Assembly: GCA_000182565.2 (NCBI GenBank)
Contig: KQ257455.1
DNA length: 64,000 nt
Reading direction: 5' to 3' (one strand)
Source: Spizellomyces punctatus DAOM BR117
Taxonomy: Eukaryota
A program made the translations under genes and the position numbers. The notes beneath the pieces are model-generated. The model was not told the origin of the DNA. It ran no database searches and worked only from the letters and a program-made list of their open reading frames with translations. Position 1 is the stretch's first letter, and each line of letters begins with the position of its first letter. This document shows, in pieces, positions 12,126 through 22,700 of this stretch.

Positions 12126-13110
12126 ATGGCCTTTCATCCAAGCTTACTTGAACCGATATTATCTTTTATCATTGTGCTTGGTTACCATGTCTGGCTTGTA
12201 TACTCTGTCATTGCGGCCCCTGAAAGCACAGTTATTGGTTTAACAAGGTATATTTGAGAATACTCTTTTGGAACTCGCCGGTTTTGTGTGTTAGGACTTA
12301 ACTCCCTTGTGTAGAAACGCGCGGAGAAAATGGTGCTATGTGATTGCACAAAAGAAAGATGGTGTATTGTGCGTTCAAACACTTCGGAACTGGTACGTTG
12401 ATTGCAGATCTAGCGGGAACAAGAACTAGTCAACTTATTTGAACGGCTTTTTGATCATCAGGTTGATGGCGTCCTCGTTGCTGGCAACGGTTTCCGTCAG
12501 TCTCGTGGTTGGTTTGGCTGCATTCATGGGCCAACGCTCCCGAATGTCCGCATTCCCTGAAACCGACGACGGAGTCAGAGTCAAATGGAAAATAAGTATG
12601 TCTTGATTTCATTCCAGTCCGTTGACATTATAATCAAATTAACAAAAACATGTCGTTGGTTCAGTCATTCTAATGTCCTGCTTTGCGAGCTCATTCTTTT
12701 GCTTCACCCAGTCCATGCGATACTTTATCCACGTTGGGTTCTTCGCCACCGCCGCATTTGCCCTTCCTCCCCAATTCCCACCATACAATCCCCTGACACA
12801 CGGCCCCGTTTCGTTACCGAATGCGAATGGAGACAGTGCTTACTCTGAAGCCAACGGAAATGGCGTGGCAGTGGAAGAAGGAGAGGACTCACTCTCGCGG
12901 GACGTTAGAACTCTTGCGAGTTTGCTCAATTTGGGTGGGCTCTTCCATACATTGGGTTTACGAGGCTTTTATTTGACATTCCCTGTGATTTTGTGGTTGT
13001 TTGGGCAATGGCTACTCTTGGCGAGTACCATCGTGCTCGTTATGGTATTGGTTATGTTGGATGTCAACTTTGCATTCTTTTACGGGCGGCGAGGAAGAAT
13101 TCGCATATGA
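12126..13110 (+). CDS. DUF599-family membrane protein
   Basis: N-terminal GYHVWL..PESTVIG, a VQTLRN motif, FFCFTQSMRYFIHVGF and FHTLGLRGFYLTFPVILWLFG, all matching DUF599 motifs. Confidence 0.8.
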
Positions 13111-13289
13111 CAGAATGCGTGGCGTGTAACGTTTGCAGGACCAGGTAGAAACAGTTGCAGATGGGGGCACTGGGTTCAAGAATAGGCTGTAACATATTGT
13201 ATGGGTATCCCATTCGCATTAAATCATTAATCATTCATAATTTCATTACATCCAACATCGATGCATCGCACGATGGCCTTGAGATACCT

Positions 13290-16200
13290 TCACCCCGCTA
13301 ACCAATTTGGATCGGCTTCCAATCTCAGTACATCTGCAGCGGCCCGCTCCTGATCCCGTACAGCCTTGGCTCGCTTCCAGAAAATATCACTGTCACTAAG
13401 TGCACCAAAACCTTAACCGATCAGTATTCAATCACACAAAGCATCCATTTTCACGTTACGTACCTGTTTTCACAAAGAACTGGCCACGCTCTGGATCCCT
13501 GAGCTTGTCGACAGATGGCATGTAAAGCCACATTGCGACGTTGGATATCATTCGAGATTGTAACAAGTCGATGATAAATCGACGGAATCTGTTGTCCAAA
13601 TCATTAGCCATGACACTTTATCTGACTGCATGATGGACGTTGCAATTCTGACCAATGGGACACAGTCATCACAAACGGCCCTATCCACCGGCACTTTTTT
13701 CCTGCATCCGAGACAGGACGCTGTTGTTGGGGTTTGAAAAAACGTAGCAATGCCTATATTTAAATGTTGCAAATCATGTGAGACGCAGACGCAAGCGAGT
13801 AGTTGGCAAAATAGGAAACCAAAAACAAACCCTTGGCAGCTCCTTCCGGCTTTCCAGCACCAACCCTCGTATGGTCTCCCGTGAAGAGGGCAGTAACTTG
13901 TGAAGGGGGAAGTAAAAGCTCAAAGATGCGTGTCAGTTGGTTTTCAATCTAGACAGCCGTGTTTAGTTATAAAACTCAATAGACTAGCAAAAATGGATCA
14001 ATCGATGCTTTTTACCTGATGCCGTACATAATAGAGGTAATCCAATCCCAGACCATTTTGAAGGGCGTACAATGGGTCTTCGCTTTTTTCGTGACCTTTT
14101 GTCCCGCCTGTTGTATACACGAATGGGATGCTAATCCAGAGTTTGGGTGACAAATGAGTTTATGTCGATAGGTAACATATATTCTTTCAGACGGTAGTAC
14201 CGTTCCCCATCTTGGAATGTCCGCCATGGTTGACGTTTGCGGATGCGTTCGACGAGTTCTACGTGAATCTGTTTTGCTGGTATTGAATTGTTGCGTAAGC
14301 CATCTACTTGCAACGCCCAACGATGTCCAACAAGTGATGATACCTTGGTAGTCCTCTGTCTCGGTTCCCAACCACAATCCTTTTGAATAATCCCTTTTCA
14401 ATCAGCACAAAACGTCCCGTAGTGGTAACTACTGAAAAAGTCTCCCACCTTTTGTAGCAATAAACTCCCCAATATCATACTCCCCTTTTAGAATGCGTCC
14501 AATGCACCAACGAACGTATTCAGCTGCAGTTGTAATATGACTTTGTCGTTCCTGATAGAATGGAATCAGTCCCATCCATGCAAGACCACCGCAGTAATCA
14601 TCCCACCAGGTACCTCCTCATTGATACAATCGGTTAAAAGTTCCCTGTTATTTGTTTTTCCACGGGGGAAAAGAATTTCGAGAACGTTTGTCATCAATGT
14701 GCCGAGAAGTGGGATACTGTCGCGACGTTGCGATTCTATACCCTTTTTTATCGATGTCATGATGAGTGATTAGGGGAGTGCATGGTATGCTCTAGGCAAA
14801 CATTGAATATTCACCTTGGCGTCAATCTTGTCTGGTTTGTCCGGGCGCGTCCATTGGAGACCTGCGTACCGTTTGCGATTAATGAGAATATAAGGAAAGT
14901 ACACCTAACCCGGGATAATATTAGCGATCATCCCGAATACACTGAATGTAACCATCCTACCTTTTCAAACTCTAGTTGAATGGGATCAGGCCACAGCTCT
15001 GACATTTTCTTTGCAATTTGTTTTCCATACTCGATTGCGTCTTGAACAGATGTGTCTGACATTTGGACAAACACCGAGTCTTGCAATTGATGTCAGAGCA
15101 CCTTTCTAACTCTTCCTATACCTATACATGGTTTTACCTGTATCTCCATACACAACCTTACAGTCCACTGCAAATCCATTGGCCTTCGTAAAGGTTTTCT
15201 CAATCTCTTTTATGAGATCCCCCAACATGGTTGCGCCGTAGAGGATAGTAGTTTCGGCAATCGGCAGGCATTGTAGTTTGGATTCGCGGGCACCAGTAAA
15301 ACCTTGGTGAGTTTACCAAAAAGGTGAGTACCGACTTATTTCCTTGGTTTCTGTTTTCGAGGTTGGGTTTACCATAAATTGCGTTTGCTGACACTTTTAG
15401 AGCCTGCTGACGACCTACCAGTTTACGTTATTAGCAAATACAAAAAACGCAGAAAAGTTTACGGTTGGATACTACCGTGGAGGACAATCTTCATGGTCGG
15501 ATCAGTGGTCTCTTCCATCCTCTTCTTGACTTTACGACGTTCATCCAGAAAATGTTCGAGAATGGCGGGCACAACCCCTTTTTTTAACTATGGCCGCAAA
15601 CCGCAAAGACGCCGTTATCTATCCACTTTTCATATTTGAACAGCACAACGATGATACCTACATGGCTCTTGACAAACCACGCCTCAATAGGTCCTAACCC
15701 CTTCTCATAATCCGTTTCTTCCAACTGAGACCGGTCGTCAGCCATCAACAATGTGTCGTAGCTCAGATTATGTGCAATAATGATACTAGGATACAATGAT
15801 CGGAAATCCAACACGGCAATGGGGTCTTTTGTATTATATTGTGCGACAGGTGCAATGTTGAGTGGCCCTTCTGTCATTTGGCCTTCATTCCTGTCTGTAC
15901 GGGTCGGAATGACTGTTTTGATTTTTTTACAGTACCGAAAGAGTTGGGACCAGAAGCGGATCATTTGGCCTCTGTGGAAAGTATCCTAAAAAGTTTGAGA
16001 TCAGCAATGACTCTGTCATTTAATAAACAACATAGACAGCTAACAGAAATATTCAAACCAGTCACTCTCGCCATCTCCAGATAACTAATCAACGCCGCTG
16101 ATTTTCGCACAAGTTGCATGCAAAGTCTAACATCTCGATTGAGGTAATCAACCACCCGCCGTCGCGTCTCGGGGGATTCAAGCCAAAGTGCCGTCAACGT

Positions 16201-18057
16201 AGGTGTCGAGAGAACTTCTTTAGAAGTCTGTAATTGGAGTTGAATCGCTTCGGCGAAACTGTGCGTATCAAATTAGTTTTGTACTGGGTATTCCAAGGAG
16301 CAGGTAAACGTTACCTATATGTTCGTAACCGCTCGTCTCGTTCAATAATCTGTCGCATGTCCAACACGATCCGTCCAGTCAATTCCAGGATTTTGAATTC
16401 CCGATTTGACGTCCCAGCCATCCGTCTAACCCAAATCCAAAACAATTTCATCAAAAACACACATAGCTCACAACTAACACATAGTGACACCGTACCTTTG
16501 AGCTCTCACCCATCCCGCCCCATAAATCTGCTTTCGAGACCCCTTTGCCTTCAAATGTGGCAATCGTCCCAGGTACCCCCATTTGGGTACCTTTAACCTC
16601 TCTGCGCGATCCATTAACCCCATGATCTGTTCGCTGACATCGTATCCAGTGACAACGTCCGGATCATATGTATTCAAAAAGGATTGGAATGCCGAGAGCA
16701 TGGCGCGTTCGGTGGGGTACATCAAGACTCGGGTAGTTTGTGAATTGGATGGCGAGCGAATACGTTCTGGTGTCGTCGAATGCGCAAAAATAAGGGTGGT
16801 GTCATTCGAGGATGCGGTTAGGGTATGTGAGGTGGTTGTGAGGCAGGATATGAAGCCTGTTATGCTGTGTGGGGCAATCGGTTGGGAAGGGGTGCTTGGG
16901 GTGTTGGAAGCGTTGCGTTTCTTTGATCTCGTTGCCTGAGGCTTTGGTGAATGATTTTTTGTATTCGAGTCTGGGTATTCGTCTATAAGGTTGGTTGCAA
17001 GCATGCATAGCACCCGTAAGGGAGCTATTTCCCCATGACGGTTGTCGCTCTTGGCGGCAAGTGTGTCGTCGGCCATAGGTTCATGAGCCGTCGCTGGGGC
17101 AAGGTCGGCTGCTCGGCAGATAACCTGTATCTGACACCGACTGGAACGCTGATGTGATTGCTGTACATGTCGGTATTTGTTCCCAGAAATAGCTACCCAT
17201 CCACCTCCGACCTAAAAGTAACCGACGGTCAGTAACTACAACAGCGATGGAGATAGTAGACACATGAGAGGATATTAAATGACGATCGATACACACCATG
17301 CCAGTATCAACCATAACCCTCATCTCCGCCGTCAAATTCCACTCATAAACTGTGACATCATACAATTTGCCTTTCCCAAACCACTCTTTCACACCTTCCA
17401 ATTCATCAGCCCCTTCCAAAATCTTTGCCAGACGACCCACCATGACCGGCTCCTGAACCTGAAGCTTCAAAAAGGAACTATACCGTGCTGGCTCATTGTC
17501 GCGCTGTACAGCATCTCTGTAATACATGAGTGGAACGACATCTTGAATGATTTCCGTTGATGTGATTGTGATTTTGGAGATATGAGGGGCTAAAACGTCC
17601 AGAAATGCTGGTATATCGTCATTTGTAAAATTTGGTGTGATGGGAAAATACAGATAGGGGTAAAAGTCGGTCAAAAAAACACATATAGAGTGACCCGTAG
17701 GTGTGCATCCAAATAGACGAATCAGCGGCGAGGAAGCGCTGGGAATGGGGTTGGCGGAAGGAAACGAGTCTTTGGACGCATCTTCACACTTTATAGTATA
17801 TTGTATCAAGAAATGGAAATCAAATGATTCAAGAAGAAAACATCATATCTAACCTCTAATAGTTGAAATAATATATCCTGACTTTCATCAGGCTCATACG
17901 CTCCTCTTTCAAACTCTGGAAACTCTACAGGTGCATCCCGGTTCCCGTTGAGGGATTCACTCGGACGCTCTTCCACCCGCGTACGCTTGGCGGGCGGTGC
18001 CCCCAATCCAGTCCCGGTACTTGATTTCCTCCGTTTGAAAAAGTTTAGGTTTGACAT
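13290..18057 (-). CDS. Family-B DNA polymerase, divergent Pol delta (POL3)-like paralogue, multi-exon
   Basis: Motif A DFRSLYPS (about 15785-15810), motif [14 protein letters not shown], motif C YGDT|DS split by an intron (about 15075-15150), [39 protein letters not shown], CysA CLGC..CDDC; the N-terminus aligns with the Pol delta NTD ([20 protein letters not shown]). Confidence 0.92.
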
Positions 18058-18179
18058 TTCAAACGTTCAAACGCGGAAGGGAGGATGTGGTATTTTTGGT
18101 CTTCACGGGAGGGGCCCCACTTACACAAAGGAGTTGTTACCTATGCATACATGTATGGAAGCTTATAGATCGCCTTAAT

Positions 18180-19734: not shown

Positions 19735-22700
19735 ATGGCCACACCACACTGCCTTTCCCCCAAAGAGTTGCTCAAACAGGCTGAAATCAAGGAACCACCC
19801 AATAATTACTCGTTCAAAGCATGGATCAACAGCGCCCTCTCTCTATATGACAAGGTAACGTTCTTACTAATTGTACAAAAGGTCTTTCTTAACACTCTTC
19901 GATAGGGAGACTTGGCGGCAAAGACGGGGGAGTTGGAGGCTGCATACGTGCATTTTATGAAGGCAACAACGTTAGTAGCATCTCACTTGAACAAATGTGG
20001 CCCGAACGCCAAGAAACAAAGCAATTCTTGTACTGACTGGCGCGTTGAAATGATACAGCATCGTCATGGACGTTTTGCCAAAGCATAGAGATTACAGGCC
20101 CATTGATATGTCGTTCAGACAAGCAAAATCGGCAAGTTCTTGCACTCTGTTTACGTGAGCACACGAAGCGGACAGCCACTGACTTGGTTCTCTTTGCGTG
20201 TGTAGAAAGTGTCAGAGTACATGGTTCTTATGGAACAACTCAAGCAGCAACTACAGGAACGCCATGATAAGCAGAGACAAGCGCTGTCGTCTTCCCTACC
20301 TACAACCAACTCGCTCGCAACGCCACCACCCTTGTCACAGTCACTACCCAACGGCAACGGGTCCAACGGAAGTGGATCCATTGGAAACGGATCCAGTTCG
20401 CAGCGCTCAGTAGTGCATCCTGATCGATTGCTGGCGTTATTAAAGCAGGGGTCCACATCTGTCCTTATTTTGGATATACGTCCCATGGAAGAGTACATTT
20501 TGGGCCACGTAAAGTGGAAAATGCGGCAAAATGGTATTCAAGGGGGTGTGGTGCATATTGAACCGGATTGGCTTGCATCGGATAGGTAAGTCACACCGTG
20601 GCAACCTTTTAGTGGCGTAAGAACAGTATAATTTATGAATCGTTCCATCTTTAACTTGATGTATATAGCCTTGATGCGGGTGATTTGGAAAGATATTTAA
20701 CGTCCTTTGGCCAAAGCTCGTCCCTTTCCAAAAACCTCTTTGAAGCCCGGCACACTTTTGATTTAATCATTTTTCTGGACCAGTCGAGCACATCCACACT
20801 GGGATCTCAATATCTCAGACGATTGATGGAGGTGGTATGCAATCACGACAAAAAGAAACTAAAGCAGCAGCCGGCGCTGTTGGTGGGAGGTTTCGATGGA
20901 TGGGATCGATTTGTGAAGCAGAGTGCAGAGAATTGGGGGGATTGGGTCGAGATTGGCGAAGGGTGTGGTCGGTTTGTGGTGGATGAGAATCAGGGCGCCA
21001 ATGGAGTTACTGGACAAGTGGCACTAGCGAGAAGTGCTTATGAATATGTGCGTCTGGCTCGTGAATGTTTATCGATACAGTGGGATGGCTAACGCTTGAT
21101 ATTCGCTAGGTGCAATCACGGGCACAGCAAAATGCTTCATCTGGATACTCCCAAAAACCGCTTTCTGCATATCCTTCTGGACAATCACAACAACAGCAAA
21201 AGACACCCCAACCTTCACCACCCTCGTCTCGACGACCATCAGAACCCTTTCAGAACCGCACCAATGTCCAACTGAATTCAGCAACGAGTGCCATGCCGGT
21301 CATTGTACCCGTCACACAATCGTACCACCAGGCACCCCTATCCCAATTCCAACGTTTCAATGATCCATTTTATAATTTCCAACATCACGCGAAGCGAACC
21401 CTTGATCAGAGCGTGTATCCCTCTTCTCTTCAAGCGGTGGGACCCCGCAACGAGTCTCTGGCGGCTTACCCTGCAGTCGGGAAAAACGTCTCTGGTACCC
21501 AATCAAACAACACTTTCAACTATCCCTCCCCCGTTGCGTCTGTACCCACCGCCCTCAGTCCAAGAATACCACCTCCCCTGCCGGTCAAGCCTCGATCCAA
21601 CAAGGATGTGGACCCATCCGCCCCTGCCCCCAACATCCCACCATTGGGCTACCATCAGATCATAAACACTTCCCCCGGTCTCCCCCGCCGTCCCCCACCC
21701 GTTGCCATTGCTCCACCTGCACTTACCATCCGTCGATCCTCGTCCCCATCTGGCTCACCCAGCACAGCACGATTTTATGGCCTTCCACCGGCCCTCCCGC
21801 CTAAACCCCGCCACCAGCTCCAATCGAGCGATACAAACAGTTTACAAGCATTTTCGCGATCGACAGCGAGTGAGCTGTCGTATTCGCAATTGGGCGGTTT
21901 CATGGGCATGGCTGGGCTAAAGAACCTTGGTAATACATGTTTTATGAATTCGGTTATTCAGTGTTTGGGGGGTACTGTACCCCTTGCGCGGTATTTTCTT
22001 GGTAAGTCAAAAGTATGTGCAGGGTATGCCCTCGTGGGTAATGAACACAGCTTTTTTTAGATGGAAGTTATCGCAAGCACATGAATAGACGAAATCCGCT
22101 CGGCACGCGGGGGGAAGTAACGGATGCCTTTGCCGAGTTGGTCAAGACCATGTGGTCTGGACAGGATGGTAATGTCGTGACACCGACTAAATTCAAGGTA
22201 AAAGAACGTTTGGGCAAGTGTCTTTTTTTTCCTATACGATCAGGCGTATTAACACTCCACAGGAAATCATTGGAGCTCACCACCCTTCCTTCCGGGGTAC
22301 CGAGCAACAAGATTCCCAAGAATTTCTTGCATTCCTCCTAGACTCGCTTCATGAGGACCTCAACGTTGCGCGCAAAGGAAACGTCGTACCTGACAAGGAA
22401 CCCGACGAGGACGAGGAGGGCATCCCAGATGCAGTCTTGCTTGATCGCGCATGGAAACGGTACAGAAAACTGAATTGGAGTATTATTGTGGATTTGTTTC
22501 AGGGGATTTTGAGAAATCGGTTGCAGTGCCTCACATGTGGAAAAGTACGTGACAAGAAAGCATTCACTTCGACGTTTTTTCTCAACTTTTTGGTGTTTTT
22601 GTTTCTAGACGTCCACGACATTTAACCCCTTCATGTACCTGACCCTCCCTATCCCCTCCCACAACCAAGCCGGCAAGAAAAACGGACCAGTCTACCTCCA

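Follow-up and report, generated by a model that had tools for sequence, protein, structure and literature searches.

The question raised by this locus is whether the chytrid Spizellomyces punctatus carries, besides its replicative DNA polymerase delta (Pol delta), a second polymerase of the same architecture that no longer proofreads. The locus lies on the minus strand, at positions 13290–18057, of a 64,000-nucleotide (nt) stretch of contig KQ257455.1 from strain DAOM BR117 (assembly GCA_000182565.2). We call this stretch the window and the product of the locus the window protein. An earlier note, made from the sequence of the window, had read the gene as a divergent Pol delta paralogue with an intact polymerase core and with decayed proofreading and Fe-S modules. 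In the B-family survey PMC7544198, eukaryotes are described with four B-family polymerases, namely alpha, delta, epsilon and zeta. Based on the analysis below, we give a probability of about 0.6 to the reading that the gene encodes a nuclear polymerase of Pol delta architecture with an active polymerase and without proofreading, a paralogue for specialised synthesis that would be tethered to PCNA.

A second gene beside canonical Pol delta

In our coordinate-built model the locus is an intact split gene of 20 exons and 19 introns that runs from the ATG at 18057 to the TGA at 13292–13290. All 19 introns are GT-AG and 56–85 nt long, and the spliced coding sequence (CDS) of 3498 nt contains one stop codon, at its end, giving a product of 1165 amino acids (aa). 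The open spliced frame that had been claimed between these two positions was thus borne out once the 19 introns were removed. The translation is letter-for-letter that of P0121 (XP_016609097.1 / KND01058.1, "DNA polymerase (pol2)", Spizellomyces punctatus DAOM BR117). The gene is already annotated, but under this generic name only.

The canonical Pol delta of S. punctatus, P0240 (XP_016612712.1, 1098 aa), was found via protein databases on a separate contig, with FDIE, NINGFD and YCLKD intact. The window protein is 34.2% identical to it. P0240 is the canonical copy of the species and the window protein is not the replicative one, and the possibility that the window holds the only Pol delta in the genome was thereby excluded. 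Together with a position outside the crown group of Pol delta (see below), P0240 upheld the earlier claim of a second polymerase that is not the replicative Pol delta.

The polymerase site is intact and the proofreading site is lost

Pfam searches with P0001, the 95%-identical orthologue from Spizellomyces sp. 'palustris', detected DNA_pol_B (E 4.4e-107), DNA_pol_B_exo1 and zf-C4pol, the last at 28.8 bits against a cut-off of 28.9. When the window protein was compared to the sequences of solved structures, it scored 502 bits with human Pol delta, 484 with yeast Pol delta and 190 with Pol zeta. An AlphaFold model of the 1165-aa protein, built on a 60-row alignment, reached a mean predicted local distance difference test score (pLDDT) of 86.1 and a predicted template-modelling score (pTM) of 0.86, with disorder at aa 1–40, 275–287 and 313–338. 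The top five Foldseek matches to the model were all Pol delta (7kc0, 6p1h, 3iay, 6tny and 9ekb; yeast and human enzymes included), with a target template-modelling (TM) score of 0.85–0.91. Herpesvirus polymerases came next, and the target TM for Pol zeta was 0.63–0.64. The Pfam domains and the superposition of the model agree with the colinearity with Pol delta that had been described from the sequence. The order of parts is an N-terminal domain, an exonuclease fold, palm, fingers and thumb, and a metal-binding domain at the C-terminus.

Polymerase motifs A, B and C are intact, as the earlier note had stated, and all the motifs quoted there are present, DFRSLYPS, motif B, YGDTDS and TKGLWLG included. 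The NRKRY motif is intact as well. The window protein thus has the B-family fold with intact motifs A, B and C that is expected of a Pol delta. The proofreading site is another matter. At Exo I the window protein has neither of the two carboxylates of FDIE, the sequence that P0240 has there, and at Exo II the sequence NINGFD is replaced by DV-SEQ. The Tyr and Asp of Exo III are kept and are all that remains, so that there is no active 3'–5' proofreading site of the Pol delta type. The predicted decay of proofreading was confirmed by these lost Exo I and Exo II carboxylates. Long insertions had also been reported; these came down mainly to one loop after the Exo I strand, whose disordered part comprises aa 313–338.

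A proofreading-dead clade in fungi

We defined a clade, PARA, that holds the window protein. In a search with the window protein, 7992 candidates were scored and 323 proteins were retained at E <= 1e-10. Eleven proteins besides the query scored 686–1209 bits, followed by a canonical-type delta at 552 bits and by Rev3-like proteins at about 200 bits. The named members come from S. punctatus, S. 'palustris', Rhizophlyctis rosea, Borealophlyctis nickersoniae (a fragment), Cladochytrium replicatum (partial), Gonapodya prolifera, Paraphysoderma sedebokerense, Bifiguratus adelaidae, Saitoella complicata, Protomyces lactucae-debilis and Savitreella phatthalungensis. These 11 species are all fungi and represent five phyla (lineages were checked for four species), and three of the named members belong to Taphrinomycotina. 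Nine more members were present in Logan, ENA and IMG sequence data. Some orthologues are labelled 'DNA polymerase delta catalytic subunit', which is misleading. Among the matches listed, a canonical Pol delta was also seen in at least seven of the 11 named species, S. punctatus included, and PARA proteins are 31.5–35.9% identical to the Pol delta of their own species.

In an exhaustive profile search of 1.84 billion representatives, 23,780 proteins were found at E <= 0.001. Full-length PARA representatives scored 1263–1691 bits and canonical deltas from 775 bits down, and judging from this gap the family is small. No PARA protein was found in Powellomyces, Gaertneriomyces, Fimicolochytrium or Batrachochytrium, in which canonical delta was seen, by a word-indexed search of annotated proteomes that gives weak evidence of absence. 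This distribution suggests that PARA is kept patchily even among close relatives.

The alignment of 12 PARA rows contained 119 invariant columns, the motif A and motif C aspartates among them. The D-x-E pair of Exo I was found in none of the 14 rows that cover it and the N...FD of Exo II in none of 15, and motifs A, B and C were kept in 14 of 15 rows, the fifteenth being a 722-aa fragment that ends before them. With Exo I and Exo II lost across PARA, the exonuclease would have been dead in the ancestor of the clade. By this comparison, the proofreading site is dead since the PARA ancestor and the polymerase site has been held since. The window protein carries the hallmarks of the clade, which are the loss of Exo I and Exo II, RGQM.RF-type fingers, an N-A-x-Y-G motif B and NRKRY. 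Compared to its S. 'palustris' orthologue it is 95.0% identical (1103/1161), and the canonical Pol delta pair of the two species is 97.9% identical. The divergence between the two Spizellomyces orthologues is 3.0–3.8% in the exonuclease, polymerase and C-terminal domains and 10.8–11.8% in the N-terminal domain (NTD) and N-tail; a few of the differences stem from annotation.

Phylogenetic position of PARA

All trees were made by 'quick' searches, with support given as Shimodaira–Hasegawa-like approximate likelihood ratio test (SH-aLRT) values only. In a FastTree phylogeny of 55 rows, PARA, delta and zeta were each supported at 100 and their mutual order was open. A posterior mean site frequency (PMSF) tree under LG+C20, with 32 rows and 942 columns, gave 100 for PARA, 99 for crown delta (fungi, Branchiostoma, Andalucia and three others) and 100 for zeta, and a lone deep branch put PARA with zeta, weakly (72). 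In every tree PARA was supported at 99–100 and zeta at 100 without PARA, and in the mixture-model trees crown delta received 97–99 with PARA outside. Joining PARA and ten fungal deltas in one clade cost 64.8 log-likelihood units (lnL) and was rejected by the approximately unbiased (AU) test (p 0.00065), which is as prone to long-branch effects as the model and was framed after the first tree had been seen. The window protein was thus found to branch outside the eukaryotic Pol delta clade, with the same caveat of long-branch effects, and a place within canonical POL3 was excluded by the crown support and the AU test. On these data PARA did not arise simply by copying of Pol delta within Fungi. 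Inside PARA, Spizellomyces branched with Rhizophlyctis and Borealophlyctis, and Bifiguratus with Taphrinomycotina. This branching roughly follows fungal relationships and therefore fits vertical descent within Fungi with many losses.

Motifs were tabulated for 168 aligned sequences, comprising 141 representatives of at least 700 aa and 27 references. The table revealed a second proofreading-dead delta-like group, G2 (P0287, P0317, P0320, P0339, P0360 and P0346), and a further one with canonical motif B, DX (P0279, P0280, P0284, P0338 and P0308). Proofreading loss in extra Pol delta copies seems to have happened several times. The Exo motifs are lost also in P0273, P0286 and P0297, which have a near-canonical motif B.

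In a 37-row PMSF tree PARA and G2 were joined at 93 and the pair was joined to zeta at 96. This full-length mixture-model tree, and weakly the 32-row tree, would be expected if PARA were a zeta-lineage 'mini-Rev3', which shares an ancestral loss of proofreading with Rev3 and extends primers in translesion synthesis, possibly with Rev7. The dead exonuclease, a state shared with zeta, points the same way, as do several residues in common, namely GY[D/E]V at Exo II, a VLDF that precedes motif A and an F that follows motif C. We nevertheless consider a mini-Rev3 unlikely. When the domains were analysed separately, the polymerase-domain tree supported PARA+G2 at 97 and set the pair beside DX and delta (59, weak). 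The tree of NTD plus exonuclease supported PARA+G2 at 96 and placed all proofreading-dead lineages on one side and the active ones (archaeal and delta) on the other, at 93. The affinity to zeta appears to be an artefact of a functional shift in the exonuclease domain, because the NTD-plus-exonuclease partition alone shows it and splits dead from active lineages, which is the pattern expected of such an artefact. A tree with PARA on the delta side was not rejected by the AU test (difference in lnL 3.3, p 0.39). In motif B, in NRKRY and in the fingers segment RGQ...SQL the window protein follows delta and not zeta, the bit score to Pol delta (502) exceeds that to Pol zeta (190), and there is no large insert between NTD and exonuclease.

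Grouping with Rev3, which the earlier note had named as a possibility that would speak against its reading, is ruled out as a place inside the zeta clade; a sister placement is supported at 96 in full length and absent from the polymerase partition. Likewise, of the designation 'Pol delta paralogue' the coexisting second gene stands, and the origin as a duplicate of Pol delta is no more than a candidate explanation, as the side on which PARA falls, delta or zeta, flips by domain. What is solid in these sequence comparisons is that PARA+G2 forms a separate clade that belongs neither to crown delta nor to zeta. A bolder proposal, which we regard as tentative and rather doubtful, is that PARA+G2 is a distinct old nuclear B-family lineage beside alpha, delta, epsilon and zeta. 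This lineage would have lost proofreading at its origin, predate the fungal radiation (possibly by much), have disappeared from most eukaryotes, all standard model organisms among them, and provide an alternative catalytic subunit for PCNA and Pol31–Pol32.

The C-terminal metal-binding domain

Yeast CysA acts in PCNA-dependent synthesis and CysB in binding of the B-subunit. In the window protein CysA has all four of its Cys, and CysB, the Fe-S site, has two of four, with the second replaced by Ala and the fourth lost. One of four CysB Cys is left in S. 'palustris'. Of 14 PARA rows, ten have a complete CysB. The two Spizellomyces rows are the only ones in which it is decayed, and in the remaining two it is truncated or could not be aligned. 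The ligands of CysA are C-C-C-C in six rows and C-C-C-H in six; CysA is half lost in Rhizophlyctis and unalignable in one row. The claim of a decayed Fe-S module thus held for Spizellomyces but not for the clade, and by this alignment CysB decay is a peculiarity of Spizellomyces. Opposite metal sites are damaged in these sister chytrid orders, as Rhizophlyctis has CysB but is without the first pair of Cys in CysA, and Spizellomyces has CysA but is without some of the Cys in CysB. Just before CysA, a stretch of the [I/M]xxF[F/L/I] type, resembling a PCNA-interacting peptide (PIP), occurs in 13 of 14 PARA rows, the last one (an ENA row) being unalignable there. Canonical Pol delta has LMKFA-like residues at this position.

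The conservation of these docking elements in most members would also be expected of a protein with a non-catalytic part, a regulator or decoy in competition with Pol3 or Rev3 over PCNA or Pol31/Pol32, and the inactive C-terminal half of Pol epsilon, with its structural role, provides a precedent in the main text of PMC7544198. With a structural role alone, motifs A, B and C and NRKRY would not have stayed unchanged in 14 of 14 full-length members, and we regard a decoy as highly unlikely.

Transcription of the gene

The gene is transcribed and polyadenylated, as seen in RNA-seq run X7, which carries the same species label, was read to about 6% and is strongly 3'-biased. The evidence consists of the sense-strand depth and of a T-run at 13197. 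The depth was 22 over 13274–13460 and 8.3 over 13461–13647, fell to near zero mid-gene, and was about 2.5 over 17762–18135. Five reads had a loose end with a T-run before 13197 (agreement 1), which places the poly(A) site 93 nt past the stop codon. No frameshift was seen in the reads, which covered the gene ends only. Runs X1 and X2 turned out to be unspliced genomic contigs with 100% identity.

Proposed function

We infer catalytic activity, low fidelity, binding of PCNA and Pol31, and a cellular role from the sequence comparisons above, and the dead exonuclease is what points to an error-prone or repair-dedicated role. A PARA enzyme would extend primers without proofreading, with a predicted lower fidelity and a better extension of mismatched or damaged termini, and would serve repair, damage tolerance or another specialised transaction, not bulk replication. 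It may be tethered to PCNA via the conserved hydrophobic IxxFF stretch and CysA ahead of the C-terminal domain. In most lineages the intact CysB would dock on Pol31/Pol32, and the enzyme would then serve, like Pol zeta, as an alternative catalytic subunit. In Spizellomyces, where CysB is without two to three of its four Cys, there is probably no Fe-S cluster and the enzyme may act without the B-subunit.

The same architecture would suit a second replicative-type polymerase that serves a particular compartment or phase of the life cycle, such as the fast nuclear cycles in sporangia. Its synthesis would be processive and PCNA-dependent and would tolerate the loss of proofreading. The polymerase site, the PIP-like stretch, CysA and, in most members, CysB are all in place, and the N-tail is basic. 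However, the family is patchy and missing from most fungi, which fits an accessory role better, and bulk replication without proofreading would be strongly mutagenic. A stage-specific replicase is, in our view, quite improbable.

Several points weigh against a specialised, proofreading-free polymerase. The PARA proteins evolve faster than Pol delta, with a Spizellomyces–Rhizophlyctis identity of 54.7% compared to 77.0% for Pol delta. The decay of CysB in Spizellomyces and the half-loss of CysA in Rhizophlyctis could mean relaxed constraint and not a changed mechanism. The contacts with PCNA and Pol31 are argued by analogy, from position and from what Pol delta structures show, and a role like that of Pol zeta could be redundant with Rev3 or a replacement for it. 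Finally, the X7 reads contained no splice joints, and their other loose ends were of low agreement; the internal exons therefore stand on annotation and orthologue colinearity.

Faster evolution and the Cys losses (two of four CysB Cys left in S. punctatus, one in S. 'palustris', CysA half lost in Rhizophlyctis) would also be expected of a decaying duplicate that has no separate function left and is, in Spizellomyces at least, an expressed pseudogene in the making. Against such decay, two Spizellomyces species have a 3.5-kb frame that stays open over 19 introns, the polymerase catalytic motifs are invariant across a clade of five fungal phyla, the divergence is concentrated outside the catalytic core, and the transcript is made and polyadenylated. 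This makes a dying gene very improbable, and an active polymerase for specialised synthesis is the reading that we keep.

Gene model and neighbourhood

The features of the gene are collected in Table 1. Exon borders were guided by the orthologues P0001 (S. 'palustris') and P0002 (Rhizophlyctis rosea) at three places, which were the 36-nt micro-exon 14379–14344, the acceptor at 14276 and the C-terminal part. An unsplit exon 14393–14201 was ruled out, as the micro-exon peptide is present in Rhizophlyctis P0002, and a 37-nt intron 14343–14307 was also rejected as a splice choice. The S. 'palustris' gene model drops four residues of the micro-exon. For the C-terminal part we used the path through exons 18, 19 and 20 with introns 13652–13589 and 13463–13396, which is backed by P0001 and P0002. 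Two other frames would each require an implausible 28-nt intron; one of these, 13616–13589, gives a CysB region without any cysteine, and P0001 and P0002 favour the third frame. The C-terminal reading of the earlier note was corrected to this frame, in which CysA is complete and CysB alone is decayed. In Rhizophlyctis P0002 a 22-residue insert lies exactly at the position of S. punctatus intron 5 (16044–15986), which probably means that the P0002 gene model includes an intron left unspliced.

Table 1. Positions of the exons, motifs and 3' end of the polymerase gene in the window
Feature	Position	Strand	Remarks
Whole CDS span	13290..18057	-	20 exons, 1165 aa; XP_016609097.1; identical to P0121
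Exon 1: start ATG 18057, disordered N-tail, basic KR-rich stretch	17854..18057	-	pLDDT <50 for aa 1-40
Exon 2: N-terminal domain	17297..17788	-	colinear with P0001 and P0002
Exon 3: NTD end, Exo I-equivalent strand, insertion loop, Exo II-equivalent	16496..17211	-	
Exo I-equivalent strand, aa 297-306	16990..17019	-	both catalytic carboxylates replaced
Insertion after Exo I, aa 307-374	16786..16989	-	S/T/K/P-rich loop aa 313-338 predicted disordered
Exo II-equivalent, aa 420-427	16627..16650	-	N and D lost, one-residue deletion
Exon 4	16315..16425	-	coordinate-built model
Exon 5: Exo III region	16045..16258	-	
Exon 6: N-part of fingers, motif A	15662..15985	-	
Polymerase motif A, DFRSLYPS, aa 639-646	15785..15808	-	intact
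Exon 7	15476..15587	-	coordinate-built model
Exon 8: most of motif B	15373..15414	-	42 nt
Polymerase motif B, aa 727-739	15301..15409	-	split by intron 8, intact
Exon 9: from the end of motif B into the first part of motif C	15138..15302	-	
Polymerase motif C, YGDTDS, aa 790-795	15075..15150	-	split by intron 9, intact
Exon 10: remainder of motif C	14961..15079	-	
Exon 11: NRKRY motif	14815..14904	-	
Exon 12: thumb	14614..14742	-	
Exon 13	14449..14551	-	coordinate-built model
Exon 14: 36-nt micro-exon	14344..14379	-	peptide also in Rhizophlyctis P0002
Exon 15	14201..14276	-	acceptor set by orthologue comparison
Exon 16	14016..14130	-	coordinate-built model
Exon 17	13831..13948	-	coordinate-built model
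Exon 18: PIP-like IxxFF stretch and CysA	13653..13753	-	4 Cys of CysA intact
Exon 19: linker helix, then the first half of CysB	13464..13588	-	first Cys present, Ala in place of the second
Exon 20: second half of CysB, C-terminal helix, TGA 13292-13290	13290..13395	-	last Cys lost
3' untranslated region ending at poly(A) site near 13197	13197..13289	-	X7: minus-sense depth 15.5-22 over 13087-13460

The 3' end of the polymerase gene faces a converging DUF599 gene, which lies on the plus strand. The polymerase (minus) and DUF599 (plus) transcripts appear to overlap by about 49 nt at 13197–13245, and a weaker loose end with an A-run lies behind 13245 (four reads, agreement 0.57). At 21110–22625 on the plus strand, open reading frame fragments match a ubiquitin carboxyl-terminal hydrolase (PF00443, E 2.8e-08 and 2.4e-15), an ordinary host gene. 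The neighbouring genes were all ordinary host genes, and no sign of a mobile element or viral insert was seen among them. In IMG/VR, 493 of 600 matched stretches encode relatives of the window protein. A viral origin was rejected, as the best 80 loci, which were kept, are 24–31% identical and none matches the query past residue 1077, leaving CysA and CysB uncovered. An IMG/VR search with a G2 query gave no matches.

Significance

PARA is apparently an unrecognised subfamily of the delta/zeta group. Full-text literature searches found no description of a proofreading-dead delta-like clade in fungi. The main text of the B-family survey PMC7544198, whose distribution table sits in the supplements, contains the words 'fungi', 'fungal' and 'paralog' zero times, and the accessible text of PMC12198294 makes no mention of the PARA clade. 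REV3 in early-diverging fungi is surveyed in PMC11061109, as its accessible text indicates.

The clade amounts to a conserved extra lineage of the Pol delta architecture in which the polymerase was kept and proofreading discarded, beside a normal Pol delta in at least seven species. If active, it would be a natural experiment in turning a replicative-type enzyme into a specialised, probably mutagenic one, and this conversion would have taken place either independently of the one that gave rise to Pol zeta or as a sister event to it. The decay of CysB in Spizellomyces and of CysA in Rhizophlyctis offers a comparative test of the role of each site. S. punctatus can be transformed, and knockouts may be feasible.

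Comparison with known polymerases

Among the proofreading-dead groups, G2 shares with PARA the one-residue deletion in Exo II, the N-A-x-Y-G motif B and the xxFF stretch before CysA. In contrast, motif C reads Y[A/C]QTDS or YGHTDS in G2 and YGDTDS in PARA, so that G2 has another residue in place of the first Asp and retains the second. The four G2 members whose C-terminal domain was aligned (P0287, P0339, P0360 and P0320) have both CysA and CysB intact. In DX motif B is canonical, and the polymerase partition places the group with delta, weakly (85).

Pol zeta (Rev3/REV3L) belongs to the same delta/zeta group, and the window protein shares with it a dead exonuclease next to intact polymerase motifs. 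A C-terminal domain with CysA and CysB is common to Rev3 and the window protein; in Rev3 this domain lets Pol zeta use the Pol delta accessory subunits Pol31/Pol32, according to the accessible text of PMC3526297. The two differ in size, as the window protein has 1165 aa compared to 1504–1538 aa for the solved yeast Rev3 chains and to 3130 aa for human REV3L (accessible text of PMC6895278). The large insert between NTD and exonuclease, which in Rev3 carries Rev7-binding motifs, is missing, the sole sizeable insertion being the loop after Exo I, and the motif B and fingers signatures follow the delta form. The window protein lacks the huge insert and the size of Rev3, just as had been noted from the sequence, and it lies outside the zeta clade.

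Pol delta (Pol3/POLD1) resembles the window protein in domain order and fold and is its best sequence match in the PDB. The window protein has a delta-like motif B, fingers segment and (N/K)[RK]KRY motif, and it likewise has a C-terminal CysA/CysB domain that closes with a conserved Trp. Unlike Pol delta, every PARA member is without the Exo I and Exo II catalytic residues, and a loop is inserted after the Exo I strand. The window protein furthermore coexists with a canonical copy, and in Spizellomyces it has a decayed CysB, the Fe-S site that in Pol delta matters for the activities of the enzyme, as stated in the accessible text of PMC6613617.

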